From positions 1 to 64,000 of the forward strand of contig CAWJKV010000004.1 of assembly GCA_963843555.1 (NCBI GenBank): a DNA stretch of 64,000 bases. The letters are read 5' to 3'. Origin of the DNA: an uncultured Methanosarcinales archaeon (GTDB lineage Archaea; Halobacteriota; Methanosarcinia; Methanotrichales; Methanotrichaceae). A program made the position numbers and the translations under genes. Below, piece after piece: positions 27,142 to 61,236 of this stretch (positions within the stretch are counted from its first letter, which is position 1; the number at the start of each line of letters is the position of its first letter). The notes beneath the pieces were generated by a model. That model was not told the DNA's origin, searched no databases, and was given only the letters and a program-made list of their open reading frames with translations.

Positions 27142-28582
27142 ATGTTTCGAGACCAACGTTTGGGTGAAATCTCCAAAGATGTTCTGGATTACCTCTCCAG
27201 CCGGGAGGCGGATGAGAGGATCTTCGAGGCGGATCTGCTGGTGGATAGAGCCCATCTGGTGATGCTGAGGGAGCAGGGCTTGATCTCAGCCGAGGTCTGC
27301 TCACAGATCATGGCCGCGCTGGAGGAGATCGGGACGACGGCGGAGCCAGCATCGGGCGCAGGCGAGGACGTGCATGAGGCCATTGAGGCGCAGGTTCTGG
27401 CCAGGGTCGGTCCCGAGGGAGGGAGGATGCACACCGGCCGCTCTCGCAATGATGAGGTGGCCACCTGCATTCGGCTGGCTCTGCGGGACGAGATGCTGGA
27501 TCTGATGAAAGAGCTGCTCTCTTTTATCCAGACGCTTGTCCGCCTGGCGGCGGAGCACAAAGAGACCAGTCATCCCCGGCTTCACTCACACCCAGCACGC
27601 TCAGCCGACAACGCTGGCCCATCATCTCCTGGCGCATGCCGATGCCGCAGCACGTGATCTGGCCAGGATGGAGGACGCCTATGCCCGGGTGAACCTGAGC
27701 CCGCTCGGGGCCGCCGCCTTTGCCTCCACCGGCTTTGCGATCGACAGGATGAGGACCTGTCAGCTTTTGGGCTTCGACGGTCTGGTGGAGAACAGCATGG
27801 ATGCCGTCTCCACGCGCGATTTTATCCTGGAGGTACTGGCCGATCTCTCCATTATGATGGTCAACCTCAGCCGTCTGGCAGAGGAGCTGATCCTCTGGTC
27901 CACCTCCGAGTTCGGTTATCTGGAATTGGACAACCTCTATGCCTCCACCAGCTCCATCATGCCCCAGAAGAAGAACCCGGATACAGCGGAGCTGGCCCGG
28001 GGTAAGACTGGCTCGGTCATGGGCAGCCTCATGGCGGTGCTCTCCATCTGCAAGGGCCTGCCCCTGAGCTACAACCGCGACCTGCAGGAGGCGACGCCCC
28101 ATTTGTGGCGCAGCCTGGACTGGGCGCGGAGCACAGTGCGTATCCTGGATGGCTGCGTCTCCACTCTCAAGTTCAACCTGGAACGGATGAATACGAGCTC
28201 GGGCGCAGGCTTCTCCACGGCCACGGAGCTGGCGGATTCCCTGGTACGCATCACCGGCATGCCCTTTCGCACAGCACACCGCATCGTGGGGCAGACAGCC
28301 GCAGGCTGGGGAAGCCCGAGCATGTTCCAGCTGGATGAGATATCTCTGGAGATCGCAGGCTTTTCGGCCAGCGAGCGCGGCTTTTCCGAAACGGATCTGG
28401 AGAGGGCTTTGGATCCGAGAAGCAATGTAGCGCTGCGGGCGAATACGGGCGGGCCCGCGCCAGAGGAGACGGGGCGGATGATCCAGGAGAGGCTGGTGCG
28501 GATAGCGGCGGGAGAAGAGCGGCTGAATGAGAGAAGGGGGCGGGTCGAGAGGGCGATGGAGGAGCTGCGGGCTGTGAGATAG
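27142..28582 (+). CDS. argH: Argininosuccinate lyase (frameshift near 27570)
   Basis: HTGRSRNDEV, PGFTHTQHAQP, TSSIMPQKKNPD, YNRDLQE, PFRTAH. Confidence 0.97.
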
Positions 28583-28803
28583 GTAAACAGTTTCGTTAAA
28601 ACTAATCCATATGTTTATCAGCATTCGTTGCCCCGCAGCGATTGTGTATCTGTACGCCTGGCGCACAGTGCAATATGGCAGGCTTGCCCTCTGGCATTTA
28701 AATCGAGTTAACGATGTAAAAGCATCTCGATCGTTCTCCATCAATAATGGCATGTGAGCTGTTCGGATATGCACTCAATCTGTGCCCTCTAAAAACATCT
28801 GAG

Positions 28804-29099
28804 GGTAAAGGGCAAAGCTCCATAAATTGTTCCCCGCGGCCGCGGGGTCAGGGGGGCCGCCACGGCCGTGAGTGGACCCCGTCACCCCAGCGCGTAAAAC
28901 CCGCGCGGAACCCCGGAAGAAGAGGTAAGATCGTTTACGCCTGAGTAAGCGATATGCCAATGTTATCGAAATGCGGACTGGACTTTGTAGATATATGCAA
29001 GGACAGTATCAGCATCAGTGCATTCTTCCGGGGTGCCGCGAGTCGGCCTGCTGGCCTCGGGCCGCGGCCGGCCGAGCGACGGCGGTTAGGCTGCAGATA
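28804..29099 (+). ncRNA. Structured non-coding element, copy 1 (homologous to 59723-60003); identity unknown
   Basis: Collinear similarity to 59723-60003; 18-nt arms 28904-28921 and 29023-29040 pair with one mismatch. Confidence 0.55.
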
Positions 29100-29417
29100 A
29101 TCGAGAGTGCCACTGTCTGGATGGAGCCCGGATCCTTTCGCATGCAGATCTGGTCAAATAAGTCAAGCAATTCGATTTTTCATCTGCTTCGTGTGAGCCG
29201 TCCTGAGGCTCATGGGCGTTTCGCATGGTACATCGCAGCGCTCAAAGTAAAACAGGGCCAGGCGGAAGGCATCGGGTTTTGCTCGCAATTCAGATCGAAT
29301 CGAAAATAGGCAGTGGAATCGAATGGCAGACCTGCTGCCACATATTCCGCGTCTTCCAGTTCCAGATAAAGCGTCAGCAAAGCCACATTTCTGGAACATA
29401 AAATTGGTATTGGCGAG

Positions 29418-29804
29418 TCACTGACGGATATCCAGCTTGGTCCTGCCCATCACCGATAGGTAGGCAACCTCTTTTCCTTCCTCGATCTTTGGTTTCTGAT
29501 CATCGGTTATGGGTACGTCGATGGTCGCATAGGTGCCCAGGTCCATGAGCTGCACTGAAGTGCTGCCGATGGACAGAACCTGGCCTGTCTTGCGCTCTAC
29601 GTTAGGCACATAGATCTTTGTGGTGACCGGCTGAACGATTGATTTCTTCTGGTTATCGAAGATACCTATGGCATCCACCCTGGCTTTGGCCGAACCGTGC
29701 TTACCCGGCTTGGAATGGGATATGCTCTTGATTATGCATGGCTCTTCATCGATGATAACGTATCTTCCTTCTTTCAGCTCTCTGACCTCAACCTGCTCCT
29801 TCAT
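29418..29804 (-). CDS. eif5A: Translation factor aIF5A
   Basis: SKPGKHGSAKAR hypusine motif. Confidence 0.97.
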   Translation of the reverse strand: MKEQVEVRELKEGRYVIIDEEPCIIKSISHSKPGKHGSAKARVDAIGIFDNQKKSIVQPVTTKIYVPNVERKTGQVLSIGSTSVQLMDLGTYATIDVPITDDQKPKIEEGKEVAYLSVMGRTKLDIRQ

Positions 29805-55702: not shown

Positions 55703-56167
55703 ATGTTTCGAGATAGCTGGAATGAGGAAGGGTGCGGATTGTTTATCAGGGGTTTTGAGAGGGGACGGTGCCTGCTGGCCAGGCTCGACCACGGCACGGA
55801 CATCATCGGTCAGATAACCGATCTGGCGAAGGAGAAGGAAATTAAGACTGGCTTTTTGAATGTTATCGGTGCTCTGAGCAGGGCTGAGCTGGGGTATTAT
55901 GATCAGATTTCTCAAAAATACGTTGAAATTCAGATCGAAGAACCAGTGGAGCTGGTATCCTGTTCGGGAAATGTATCCCTGCGGGACGGCCAGCCTTTTT
56001 TGCACGCTCATGCCGTTCTGTCGGATCGTGAGGGAAGGATATGGGGAGGCCACCTGACCTCCGGCCCGGTCTTTGCAGCAGAGCTCTACATGCAGGAGCT
56101 CTTGGGCCCGAATCTCAAAAGAATGCCTGATTCGATCACCGGCCTGAATCTATGGAGTGAAGAGTGA
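55703..56167 (+). CDS. PPC-domain (DUF296) protein; true start may be TTG 55739
   Basis: [30 protein letters not shown]...GGHL. Confidence 0.9.
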
Positions 56168-59100
56168 AGAATTCCGAATACTTCGAGTTCTTGCAGCAGG
56201 GCTTGACGAACGCCATGACCATAGCCCAGGCGGCCCGCGCCCGAGGGTTGGATCCCACAACAGTTGTAGAAATACCGCTTGCGGTTGACCTGGCAGAAAG
56301 GGTTGAGAAGCTGATCGGCATCCCTGGCATTGCCGTGAGGATCCGGGAACTGGAAGAGCAGGGCATGAGCCGGGAAGAAGCAGCTCTCGCCATTGGTATC
56401 GATTTTGCTGAAGGCCGCCTGGGAAAAGGAACCTCCAAGATCGAATCAGTGGAAAACGCCATTCGTACATCGGTCGCCCTGCTCACAGAGGGCGTTGTCG
56501 CGGCACCCATTGAAGGAATCGCTCGCGTGGACCTGGGAAAGAACGATGATGGAACTGAGTACCTCAAGGTCTACTACGCAGGGCCCATAAGATCTGCCGG
56601 CGGCACGGCCCAGGCCCTATCCGTTCTCGTGGCGGACTATGTGCGCAGAAGCGTCGGCATAGCGCCCTGGAAGCCGAGACCGGAAGAAGTAGAACGTTAC
56701 GTGGAGGAGATTGGCCTATACAAGCGCGTGGCTGGCCTGCAGTATTCGCCTTCGGACGACGAGATCCGAACCATTGTGCGCAATTGCCCTATCTGCATCG
56801 AAGGAGAGCCCACTGAGGAGGAAGAGGTATCCGGATACCGTGACCTTGCCAGGATCGATACCAATCGTGTGCGGGGCGGCATCGCCCTGGTCTCGGCGGA
56901 AGGCATCGCCCTGAAGCGGCCCAAGCTCAAGAAGCATGTAACAAAACTTGGCATCACTGGCTGGGAGTGGCTCGATTCCCTGGCAAGCGGCAAAAAGGAA
57001 GGCGGGGACACCACACCCAAGTTCCTGCGCGACCTCATTGCCGGACGGCCTGTCTTCTCTCATCCCTCCCGTCCGGGCGGCTTTCGGCTGCGTTATGGGC
57101 GGGCCAGAAATACAGGCCTGGCTGCAGCCGGAATCAATCCCGCCAGCATGCTGCTGTTGGGCGAGTTCATGGCGGCCGGAACCCAGATCAAGGTGGAGCA
57201 GCCGGGCAAGGCGGCAGCCGTAGCTCCGGTCAGCTCCATCGAGGGGCCGACGGTGCGGCTGCTGAACGGGGATGTGGTTCGGTTCGATTCCGATCAGGAT
57301 ATCCTGGAATGGATGCCGGTGACCTGCAAAGATCCCAAGACCATCCAGCTGGCTCTCAAGGCCCATGTTTCCAAGATTTTGGACCTGGGCGAGATACTGA
57401 TCAGCTACGGCGAGTTCCTGGAGAACAACCGGCCTCTGGCCCCAGCCTCCTATGTCTTCGAGTGGTGGGCAGAGGAGCTGAAGAAAGCGGGAGGCGATCC
57501 CGCCGGCCTGGAGCTGATCGACGGCGTCAAAGCTATAGACCTCTCCAGAAAATATGGCGTCCCACTTCATCCGGCCTACACTTATCTCTGGCACGATCTG
57601 ACTCTAGAAGAGTACGAGCAGCTGGCCGAAGTCGCGAGCTTGCAGGGCATTATGGAATCCGGAAAGCTCCTCCTCCCTCTGGAAGCCAAGGATTCTTTGG
57701 AGACGCTGCTGGTTCACCACAAGGTCCGAGGAGGAAAGGCGATTATCGAGGATCCCCTGCCCTTCCTGCTCTGCCTGGGGATAACTCTGGAAGATGGCGC
57801 CTTGAAGGACCCCTGGTGAGCCGACCGAAGATAAGCCAGATGAGAATACGGAAGAAATATAGAAAGAATAAGGAAGGTGGATTCGGCGCTGGCAGCTGTC
57901 AACAGGCGATCGGGCCTCGTCGTTCGCGCCCGGGCGCCCACGCGCATCGGCGCCCGGATGGGCAGGCCGGAGAAGTCAGATAAAAGGCTGATGCGCCCAC
58001 CTCCGCACGTTCTCTTCCCGGCAGGAGAAGAAGGCGGCAAGTCGAGGTCGATTCAGGAAGCTGCCAAGCACTCTACAGGCAATGTAACCGGCATGGTCAA
58101 TGTGGAGATCGAGCGGCGCGTCTGCAAAGACTGCAAGAAAGAGGGCTTTGCCTTCCGATGTCCATGCGGCGGCCACACAGAAAAAAAGAGGGTCTGCCCA
58201 AAATGCAATGTCCAGGCTGCAGAGAAGTGCCCCAAATGCGGTGTTGAGACGACCGCCGCTGCCAATATGCAGATCGACATAAAAAAGCTCTATCACCAGG
58301 CGCTGGAGCATCTGGGTGAGCGCGAGCCGGAGACATTCAAAGGGGTCCTGGGACTCTCCTCCCGGGATAAGACCCCGGAGCCTCTGGAGAAGGGCATCCT
58401 GCGCGCGAAACATGGGGTGAACATCTTCAAAGACGGCACTGTGAGGTACGACCTCACCGATCTGCCGCTAACTCATTTTCGCCCGGACGAGATCGGCACC
58501 AGCACCGAGACTTTGCAGAGCCTCGGCTATACGGAAGACATGCACGGTGCAGCTCTGACGATGCCGGATCAGGTCTGCGAATTGAGGGTGCAGGACATCA
58601 TTCTCGCCAGAGATGCAGGAGACTATCTCTTAAAAGTTGCCATGTTTGTGGATGAGCTTCTGGTCAAGTTCTATGGTCTTGAGCCCTACTACAATGCAAA
58701 TTCGCCCAAAGATCTGATCGGGGCACTGATGGTGGGCCTGGCGCCCCATACCTCGGCGGGCGTTCTCTGCCGGCTCATCGGCTACAGCCCGGCCTCAGCG
58801 GGATTTGGGCATCCCTTCTTTCATGCCGCCAAGCGCCGCAATTGCGACGGAGACGAGGACTGCGTGATGCTGCTCATGGATGCGCTTCTCAACTTCTCCA
58901 TGTCCTACCTCCCTGCGAAACGGGGCGGAAAGATGGATGCCTGCCTGGTCATGACCACTATCCTCAATCCTGCAGAGGTGGACAAAGAGGCTCACAACCT
59001 GGATCTGACGGCCATCTACCCCCTGGAGTTTTATGAGGCTTCCCTTCTCGGCACCAATCCCAAGGACCTGGAAGGGAGATTCGATCTGGTCTCCAAGCGT

Positions 59101-59595
59101 CTGGGCTCAGATGCTCAGTATGAAGGCTTCAACTTCAGCCACAGCACGACGGATATTGCTGCCGGTCCCAAAAACAGTGCCTACAAGACACTGGAGACCA
59201 TGGTCGATAAGATGGATGCCCAGCTGGAACTGGCGCGAATGATCAGGGCCGTGGATGAGCAGGACGTGGCGGAAAGGGTCATCAACTCTCACTTCCTGCC
59301 CGATCTGATCGGCAATCTGCACGCCTTCTCCAAGCAGAAGGTGAGGTGCGTGAAGTGCGGCGCCAAGTACAGACGACCTCCTTTAAAAGAGACCTGCCCC
59401 AAGTGCGGCGGCCGGATGATTCTCACGGTGCATGAGGGGAGCGTTCGGAAATATCTGGAGGTTTCCATAAAAGTGGCAGAGGAGTACGATGTGAGCAGCT
59501 ACACCAAGCAGAGGCTACAGCTCCTGAAAATGGAGATCAACTCCCTCTTCAAGAACGATAAGGCCAAGCAGACGGGACTGGCGGATTTCATGTAA
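56164..59595 (+). CDS. polC: DNA polymerase D large subunit DP2, split by an apparent frameshift at about 57810-57877
   Basis: [76 protein letters not shown]. Confidence 0.97.
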
Positions 59596-59722: not shown

Positions 59723-60003
59723 GCTAGAGTGCAGAGTTACATAGATTGTTCCCCGCGGACGCGGGGTTAGGGGAGCCGACACGGCCTGGAGTGGGCCGTC
59801 ACCTCAGCGCGTGTCACCCGGGCGGAGCCCCGGAAGAAGTAGATGGGCAGTCTTTCTTATGAGCAAAGATAGTATTATCCAACTTAAGATGGGACACGTC
59901 TAATAGAGTCAAGCACTACGTCGCACTTTCTTCTGGGGTGCCGCGAGTCGGCCCTTCGGGCAGCGGCCAAAATGGCCCCCTCAACGCCGGGGAGGCTTGG
60001 ATA
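59723..60003 (+). ncRNA. Structured non-coding element, copy 2 (homologous to 28804-29099); identity unknown
   Basis: Arms 59822-59838 and 59928-59944 pair; the 26-nt 3' block is 25/26 identical to copy 1. Confidence 0.55.
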
Positions 60004-60035
60004 CATGGTTTAGCGAGAGGATCCCTTATGCTGCC

Positions 60036-61236
60036 CTATCCACACCGCCCCGGCTCTGCAGAATAGGGTCTGTTCTCCTTCAGGCACCACTCCATCTCCG
60101 ATAGAATCTGCCCAATCTCGCCGCCTTCTTTCAGCCTCTGGACCATGATCTCCGCCAGGCTGCCCTGCTCGATGCGTTTTGCCACCAGCGGCAGGTATCG
60201 CATCTCCTCTTTAGTTGCATTCTTTTGCGCCATTCGGAAGAGCTTCTCCAGCTCCGGCCTCAAACCCGCCACGCCGTGCCGCATGGCATCTTCCAGCATT
60301 GCCAGCAGATGGCTTTCCTCCTCTTCCAGCTCCAGGTCGGTTCGAAGCAGCGCCAGAAGGAACGCCGAAATGGCCATGTCCGAGTGCAGACATTCCTGCT
60401 CATCTATGGCTTTCACCTCCAGGCAGTTCCTTGAGAAACGCACTATTACACCCCTGGAATTAACCCATTCAGAGCATAGAATCTCTGCCCGGCATCTCTT
60501 CAGTTCCGTGTAGATATCCTGGTTGATGCTGCTCATAATCTTCCACGCTATCCAGCTTCTCGGGAAGTATGCCGTGGCAGATCCCTGGAATCTGGGACTG
60601 GTTTTGCCGGTAGTAGACCAGACGGTTGTCCATATAGGAGGTCGTCTTTCCCTCTACCAGCGGCGAAGATGCAGACACGGCTACCAGATATGGAATGAGA
60701 GAACGGATCTTGTTGAACGTTATGACCATATCATCCTTATTCTCGTAGGGATAATTGATTTGCAGCGCCTGAATGTTCAGCCAGCCGTGCTGCTTGATGT
60801 TGAAAAGACGGTCGTATGCTTCATAGTACTCTTGCTCGTCATGGTCCCAGTAGGTCGTCTGATCCAGAGTGAGCAGGGGATGCATACCCAGGCCCATAAA
60901 CCCGTACTCATAATTCGTGGCCCGGTATAGCTCGCATAATCCCTGGTATAGATTCTCCTCCAAAAAGTTCAGGTTTCCCGGGCGTGCCGGAATCAGCTCC
61001 AGAGCGTGCTTTTGCAGCTCTTTGGCCACCCAGATCCCGCCGAAAGGCACCTGATGCTGTACCTCTCCGCTTATCCGCTCGATGATCTTGTCGGAGATGG
61101 CTAGCGGCCTATGGTTCTTGTCGTTTATAGAGTACTCGTGCTCTGTTCCTATGGGTGACTTCGCAGGCAGTGCCTTATAAGTCACCATCTTTGATGCCTT
61201 CTGGATCTGCATCGCCTTTTCTCTGGCCACCAGCAT
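60036..61236 (-). CDS. Glutamate--cysteine ligase family (GCS2) carboxylate-amine ligase (frameshift near 60535)
   Basis: IGTEHEY, ELQKHALE, LGMHP, HGWLNIQALQIN, SASSP, MDNRL, NSRGVIVRFSRNCLEVKAIDEQEC. Confidence 0.85.

Follow-up and report, generated by a model that had tools for sequence, protein, structure and literature searches.

A BIME-like palindromic repeat family of Methanothrix, with IS110 ends on a subfamily of its copies

Two intergenic copies and the family to which they belong

The window, which is the entire 64,000-nucleotide stretch of archaeal DNA analyzed here, contains two copies of a GC-rich palindromic repeat, each located in a gap between genes (Table 1). A sequence-only reading of this DNA had described both copies, their collinearity, the sequence blocks that they share, and the stems that enclose their interiors, and we recovered all of these features at the coordinates it gave. 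The limits that it set for copy A (28804 to 29099) were too short, however, as this copy spans about 28689 to 29222. It had also placed copy A between argH and aIF5A and copy B between PolD and GCS2; these genes are indeed present, but a broken gene intervenes between copy A and aIF5A. We take this remnant to be agmatinase-like, based on an intact ORF in the related genome G015. A 112-amino-acid ORF that lies over copy A has no Pfam match. Three of the neighboring genes, argH (27142 to 28582), PolD DP2 (56164 to 59595), and GCS2 (60036 to 61236), are each represented by two ORFs, which reflects either long-read indels or decay. Copy B is missing in the related genome G065; loss is the likelier explanation, because three other relatives carry it. 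Throughout, L and R denote the inverted GC-rich modules, I the spacer, X and Y the outer modules, and LE and RE the left and right ends of IS110 elements.

Table 1. Positions of the repeat modules, IS110 ends, and neighboring genes in the window
Feature	Position	Strand	Basis or comparison
argH, two ORFs; left neighbor of copy A	27142..28582	+	
X_L, decayed IS110 right end on the outer side, comprising RE tip, loop, and subterminal inverted repeat; bounds the composite	28689..28731	-	RE motif of autonomous elements
Conserved linker preceding L; in tandem arrays, the part next to L also connects R to L	28732..28806	+	
Copy A, L module: three GC-rich hairpins and left arm of core stem; inverted homologue of R	28807..28922	+	
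Copy A, I module: AT-rich homologous spacer, exchanged between copies	28923..29022	+	
Copy A, R module: right arm of core stem and hairpins; internal deletion	29023..29097	+	
Remnant, half CRISPR repeat; putative insertion site of the ancestral MITE	29098..29135	+	
IS110 MITE, ~87 nt (LE and inner RE)	29136..29222	-	44/47 nt against LE of autonomous IS110 L307
Broken 5' remnant of agmatinase-like gene (presumed); neighbor outside the element	29240..29399 (approximate)	-	G015 has an intact ORF at this locus
aIF5A	29418..29804	-	
PolD DP2, 3' ORF; left neighbor of copy B	57877..59595	+	
Copy B, L module	59726..59839	+	
Copy B, I module	59840..59927	+	Type as in G069; flanks resemble G063/G068
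Copy B, R module, alternative tail; IS110 ends not detected	59928..60004	+	
GCS2 ligase, two ORFs; right neighbor of copy B	60036..61236	-	

The element had initially been taken to be present twice, which proved to be a large underestimate. Profile searches of the whole genome from which the window derives (G000; 2.68 Mb, 82% complete) yielded 95 module matches in 43 clusters, while the same searches against the reversed genome yielded none. The L-I-R order is intact in 19 of the 43 clusters, and all modules of one cluster always lie on a common strand. A pattern for the R core matched 20 of 59 Methanothrix congeners, with 33 matches in G000, 20 to 49 in each of four close relatives (G063, G065, G068, and G069; 49 in G068, whose genome is 98% complete), and 1 to 3 in each of the other 15. 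The repeat family is restricted to Methanothrix. A species-wide genome scan gave 67 loci, of which 65 belonged to records of Methanothrix or Methanosarcinales; the two others, on short contigs of bacterial MAGs, are probably mis-binned. Viral contigs contained no match to the R pattern, the L pattern, or the IS110 protein described below. We found no description of the repeat in Methanothrix in the literature searched, a search that had most subscription journals and ISfinder outside its scope. The repeat was likewise absent from the available text of five related sources, the supplements of which could list these IS110 elements (PMC12306157, PMC13343696, PMC3718332, 10.1101/2022.02.06.479319, and 10.64898/2026.10.21.760802).

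G000 also carries other repeated units. One further dispersed family of ~80 nt occurs in the window (G000:C4:990-1063) and at C3:1493, C3:26244, and C13:3368. Another GC-rich noncoding unit forms about 8 repeats at a spacing of 0.4 to 1.3 kb, in the manner of a cassette array (G000:C11:46837-52018 and C2:221416), and at G000:C9:77947-84939, cargo genes are separated by repeated units of ~180 nt.

Core anatomy, module exchange, and folding

When read backwards, L is homologous to R, and this homology extends beyond the core stem (0 of 1,000 shuffles). Hybrid R/L units also exist (L150 and L011). Thus, the element is an inverted heterodimer built around a spacer. The spacer measures 80 to 109 nt in 46 of 48 copies and is typically ~95 nt long. 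Among 12 copies from G000, median identity was 85% in the arms and 60% in the spacer; the highest overall identity of any pair was 89%, and the copies are thus old. Truncated, hybrid, and tandem forms are common, and head-to-tail arrays with a period of ~375 bp are found in G068 and G069.

Distances between modules in these 12 copies were uncorrelated (Mantel r = -0.11, -0.05, and 0.09), whereas the two halves within a single module did correlate (0.29, 0.49, and 0.55), which points to module shuffling. Comparison of orthologous copies provides a direct case, as copy B combines flanks like those in G063 and G068 with a spacer like that in G069. The interior had previously been described as variable and possibly guide-like; we find instead a homologous, drifting module that is exchanged between copies, and not a free guide.

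The sequence-only reading had called the element structured and had suggested a noncoding RNA with a conserved scaffold. Relative to shuffled sequences, folding is better in copy A (z = -4.2) and not in copy B (z = -0.75). Both substitutions in the stem of copy B yield G-T pairs on the + strand, just as had been noted. In a set of 26 copies, this bias seemed specific to the stem, which showed 12 C>T against 2 G>A changes while the spacer was even. With 48 copies, however, the specificity was gone: G-T exceeded A-C in the stem by 43 to 22 (p = 0.013, with copies that are not independent), and the same classes stood at 117 to 67 in the unpaired spacer (stem versus spacer, Fisher p = 0.88). The G-U bias therefore does not indicate RNA, because the unpaired spacer has an equal bias, and the strand bias may be mutational. 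Covariation was found locally, in an L hairpin. The consensus folds of the two strands have equal energies (-141 versus -142). Rfam returned nothing at the gathering threshold and, by E-value, no more than chance-level scores (best, 23.6 bits against a cutoff of 60), which bears out the earlier statement that the element matches no recognized RNA family. In contigs assembled from five RNA runs and one DNA run, L and R were covered in both, with peaks at the same multicopy modules, so that this coverage speaks neither for nor against transcription.

A structured noncoding RNA family, or a 3'-UTR stabilizer, with a conserved scaffold would account for arms that are more conserved than the spacer, for the covariation in the L hairpin, for the frequent UNCG-like loops, and for the excess of G-T over A-C in the stem. 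We nevertheless consider an RNA of this kind very improbable, given the equal strand bias of the unpaired spacer, the equal folding of both strands, the lack of an Rfam family, and the many truncated, hybrid, and tandem copies. The suggestion of a guide fares no better, with an interior that is homologous and exchanged.

IS110 ends and other candidate mobilizers

The longest copies reach past the limits first assigned to the element, with an X module on both sides and a terminal hairpin, Y. A metagenome scan for Y recovered 45 loci, including solo X-Y units. L/R modules accompany Y at three of these loci, Y stands before an IS110 gene or its remnant at another three, and the rest are chance or unrelated matches. 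In copy A, positions 29136 to 29222 (- strand) match the left end of one autonomous IS110 element, L307, at 44 of 47 nt (score, 72; shuffle maximum, 24) and that of a second, L327, at 41 of 47 nt, and this segment terminates in the right-end tip found in autonomous elements. In L307, the matched left end precedes an ORF with DEDD_Tnp_IS110 (PF01548) and Transposase_20 (PF02371) domains. Right ends of the composites, as we refer to L-I-R units bounded in this way, carry the tip and subterminal inverted repeat of autonomous IS110 elements, although these are decayed at the outer end of copy A. From the position of Y before IS110 genes and the homology of the ends, we recognize an IS110 MITE in X-Y and a second right end in the X of the opposite side. 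A complete copy with the order LE-RE-cargo-RE is found in G068 (L452). We had also considered X-Y as an IS200/605 PATE but gave this up when the end of the module turned up in front of IS110 genes.

MITEs without a gene are common among these ends. They measure 82 to 85 nt at 13 or more of the 38 left ends examined, and solo LE+RE MITEs of 82 to 91 nt have sharp ends and unrelated flanks. Fifteen sequences, with 13 distinct flanks, have L/R downstream of an outer RE; R-RE-LE ends occur in 19 sequences with 16 flanks, or in 18 with 15 if L313, which has no L/R match, is set aside. Across 13 and 15 unrelated flanks, respectively, the boundaries are sharp at a short shared core. L-I-R is present together with the MITE at the Obg locus of G000 and G068, while G063 has the MITE alone there, between the same flanks as in G000. 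The outer RE of copy A is preceded by ~20 nt not seen in G065. Neither the four composites scored at both ends nor solo R at a hisB-like locus (30 loci listed) yielded a clean pre-insertion (empty) allele.

Other arrangements of these ends were also observed. At L114 (G068:C2:180.6-182.5 kb), outer and inner IS110 REs enclose two elements and a nucleotidyltransferase gene, and the LE is decayed; this is possibly a case of gene capture. At L310, L311, L314, and L330, an IS110 left-end hairpin lies within a different short element, directly behind a tRNA gene.

That the repeat forms a dispersed, nonautonomous family mobilized in trans had been proposed from the outset as one of two possibilities, with an HUH transposase as the mobilizer. 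A dispersed, nonautonomous family mobilized in trans is supported, but its ends point to IS110 (DEDD recombinase and bridge RNA) and not to HUH. The two IS200 TnpA genes of G000 carry their own, different ends; its Y1 genes are these IS200 copies, and no RAYT flanked by repeats was found. G068 has no Y1_Tnp match, G000 has no TnpB or reverse transcriptase (RT) gene, and no ends common to a TnpA/TnpB-bearing element (as in an IS200/IS605 PATE) were found. Three tyrosine-recombinase fragments are present, none adjacent to an element. Y1_Tnp, TnpB, RT, and tyrosine recombinase were thus rejected as partners, as none shows a link to the repeat.

A trace of an IS110 end is kept in only 12 of the 43 G000 clusters and is missing from 31; copy B has none. 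Solo R units, some of them tandem, occur across Methanothrix, including distant species where they have other linkers, and IS110 ends were not seen on them. Because these units are widespread without IS110 ends, and one site is common to many species, R predates the composite. L-I-R could accordingly belong to an older REP/BIME-like family with a spread of its own, through some nuclease as yet unseen or since lost, or through tandem duplication and gene conversion, of which IS110 MITEs captured one late subfamily. Such an origin would agree with the end-less clusters and solo units, with the homology of R to inverted L and the hybrid units described above, and with the placement of 17 of 43 sites between convergent genes, compared to 151 of 819 long gaps (crude gene calls). 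On the other hand, no RAYT, TnpB, or RT was found, high R-core copy number coincides with the presence of the outer-RE motif in five genomes, and many L copies without ends retain the linker that follows the outer RE. We therefore regard an independent spread of the family as unlikely, while preferring the alternative in which IS110 ends carry the repeat.

IS110 partners, proposed mobilization, and genomic neighborhood

In autonomous relatives, the 5' noncoding ends form long stems interrupted by internal loops. In 33 of 39 autonomous elements, 7 or more of 8 nt of the predicted target guide agree with the left flank of the element itself, with 17 different guides represented; noncognate guide-flank comparisons reach the same threshold in 4.3% of cases. 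Both figures are inflated by a shared AAAC core and by related, nonindependent copies. In L307 and L337, the right flank is matched as well, by the opposite loop. Guide loops that match both flanks thus fit the bridge-RNA model, as presented in the available portion of PMC11208160. The family with these 17 natural target-guide variants matching their own flanks comprises L307, L327, and L337-L386. Flanks of the MITEs retain only a TGAAA core.

The IS110 subfamily nearest the MITE targets ATTGAAAC, and 19 of 38 such left ends examined sit in repeat arrays. In the composite, the MITE directly follows half of a CRISPR repeat; at L315/L324, the remaining half of this repeat, with its leader, follows the left end. 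Partners of the ATTGAAAC type are intact in G068 and G009. An intact cognate recombinase was not found in G000 (82% complete), where only a split gene (45% identity) and a foreign-looking, frameshifted gene were present, and the composite is probably inactive in this genome. Several related loci were noted. In at least three CRISPR repeat families, the ATTGAAAC end is the insertion site of an IS110 subfamily and its ~83-nt MITE (L339, L343-L345, L367, L368, L371, L375, L420, L422, L423, L428, and L252). L454 (G000:C18:11-14 kb) is a frameshifted IS110 of another type amid bacterial-looking ORFs, possibly through contamination or transfer. L221 (G000:C2:148.1-148.3 kb) is an orphan CRISPR mini-array of two repeats with a leader, and its repeat family is that of the composite's half repeat.

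Starting from the family and its anatomy, the IS110 homology of its outer ends, the sharp boundaries, and the guide-target matching of the autonomous relatives, we propose that the repeat is a BIME-like L/R doublet and that copy A and its subfamily, held between one IS110 LE and two REs, were likely spread in trans as cargo. The repeat probably counts as hitchhiking DNA and not as a new RNA gene. In this model, a CRISPR repeat next to an L-I-R unit would have received a gene-less IS110 MITE of ~85 nt, and another right end would have come to stand on the far side of L-I-R. IS110 recombinases with their own bridge RNAs could act in trans on the resulting composite. Excision via the inner RE would move the MITE alone, while excision via the outer RE would release the composite of ~530 to 580 nt as a circle, which would target sites with a TGAAA core, often T-tracts behind stop codons. 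Later deletion, tandem duplication, and gene conversion likely eroded the ends and shuffled the modules, giving forms like copy B.

If this is true, a natural bridge-RNA recombinase moves foreign cargo in trans by means of a duplicated RE; ~85 nt of end sequence would suffice, and the target guide would be borrowed from whichever is present. The archaeal IS110 family, with its 17 natural guide variants and minimal donor ends, is open to testing. The repeats themselves form a BIME-like family in an archaeal genome where no RAYT was found. They are linked to toxin-antitoxin genes, to CRISPR trailers, and to loci that have been rearranged, and the host lineage consists of abundant wetland methanogens.

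IS110 MITEs and modular IS110 transposition are already known; what sets this case apart is that the cargo is palindromic, that the right end is duplicated, and that a BIME-like core occurs in an archaeon. The nearest precedent, as far as the accessible part of its description extends, is ISPpu9 with MITEPpu9/ssr9 of Pseudomonas putida KT2440, for which alternative circles were detected experimentally (PMC12288879). Alternative combinations of IS110 ends, a transposase-less module acting in trans, and palindromic repeats are common to both cases. In ISPpu9, however, an sRNA gene located beside the transposase serves as cargo and the REP as target, whereas here the palindrome is the cargo (PMC12288879, same part). 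The MITE described here is archaeal, has one LE and two REs, and is known from assembled contigs, in which no circle was observed. Like IS621 and the IS110 group, according to the portion available of Durrant et al. 2024 (PMC11208160), the autonomous relatives combine DEDD and Tnp20 domains with 5' noncoding guide loops for target and donor and a short core. The core appears to be 3 to 5 nt and GAAA-like here, as opposed to CT in IS621 (PMC11208160, same portion), and the composite encodes neither recombinase nor bridge RNA.

The repeat resembles BIMEs and REPINs (GTAG and CGTC REPs), as described in the accessible sections of PMC3733652 and PMC6006769, in its inverted heterodimers, conserved spacers, tandem clusters, extragenic location, and enrichment between convergent genes. 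It differs from the REP units of 20 to 40 bp with a GTAG/CGTC tag covered there in that its units are ~100 nt long and a terminal tag was not seen in alignments. Its host is also an archaeon in which RAYT was not found; the RAYT survey, in those same sections, found only the IS200-type subclass in Archaea (PMC3733652 and PMC6006769).

Nine of 18 hicB-family matches lie within 600 bp of an element; among called genes, the share is 3.7% overall and 6.5% for small ones. Pairs of hicAB, RelE-type, and PIN genes have elements on both sides, in direct repeat. In several genomes, R abuts CRISPR trailer ends and remnants of what is presumably csx3. These associations, together with the shuffled modules, raise the idea of the palindrome acting as a single-strand recombination site (attC- or pdif-like), through which cassettes of toxin-antitoxin genes, csx3, and CRISPR mini-arrays would be shuffled. 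attC sites carry paired R''/R' core sites at both ends and measure under ~150 bp. The R tail has one attC-like core heptamer only, and the palindrome, at 220 to 300 nt, is too large. No recombinase gene stands beside any of the elements scanned, and the same clustering could follow from tolerant 3' intergenic sites or from co-duplication. A recombination site is thus improbable in our view. Integron attC arrays, including archaeal CALINs, do share with the repeat imperfect palindromes beside toxin-antitoxin genes, but the repeat is dispersed, much longer, and lacks paired core sites or an adjacent integrase (10.1101/2022.02.06.479319, as far as its accessible text shows). We give an equally slim chance to a combined scheme, in which L-I-R would be a single-strand platform for shuffling defense cassettes, seeded by RNA-guided IS110 elements, and would constitute a dispersed, integron-like archaeal system.

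Some arrangements recur in this neighborhood. A recurrent neighbor of solo R units is a csx3 remnant, whose 3' end they face (L008, L116, L137, L153, and L390); in G068, this arrangement is located where a type III-B cmr operon ends. At L120 and L250 (G022:C2:414-419 kb), three tandem blocks each consist of one or more R units, a CRISPR mini-array, and a leader.
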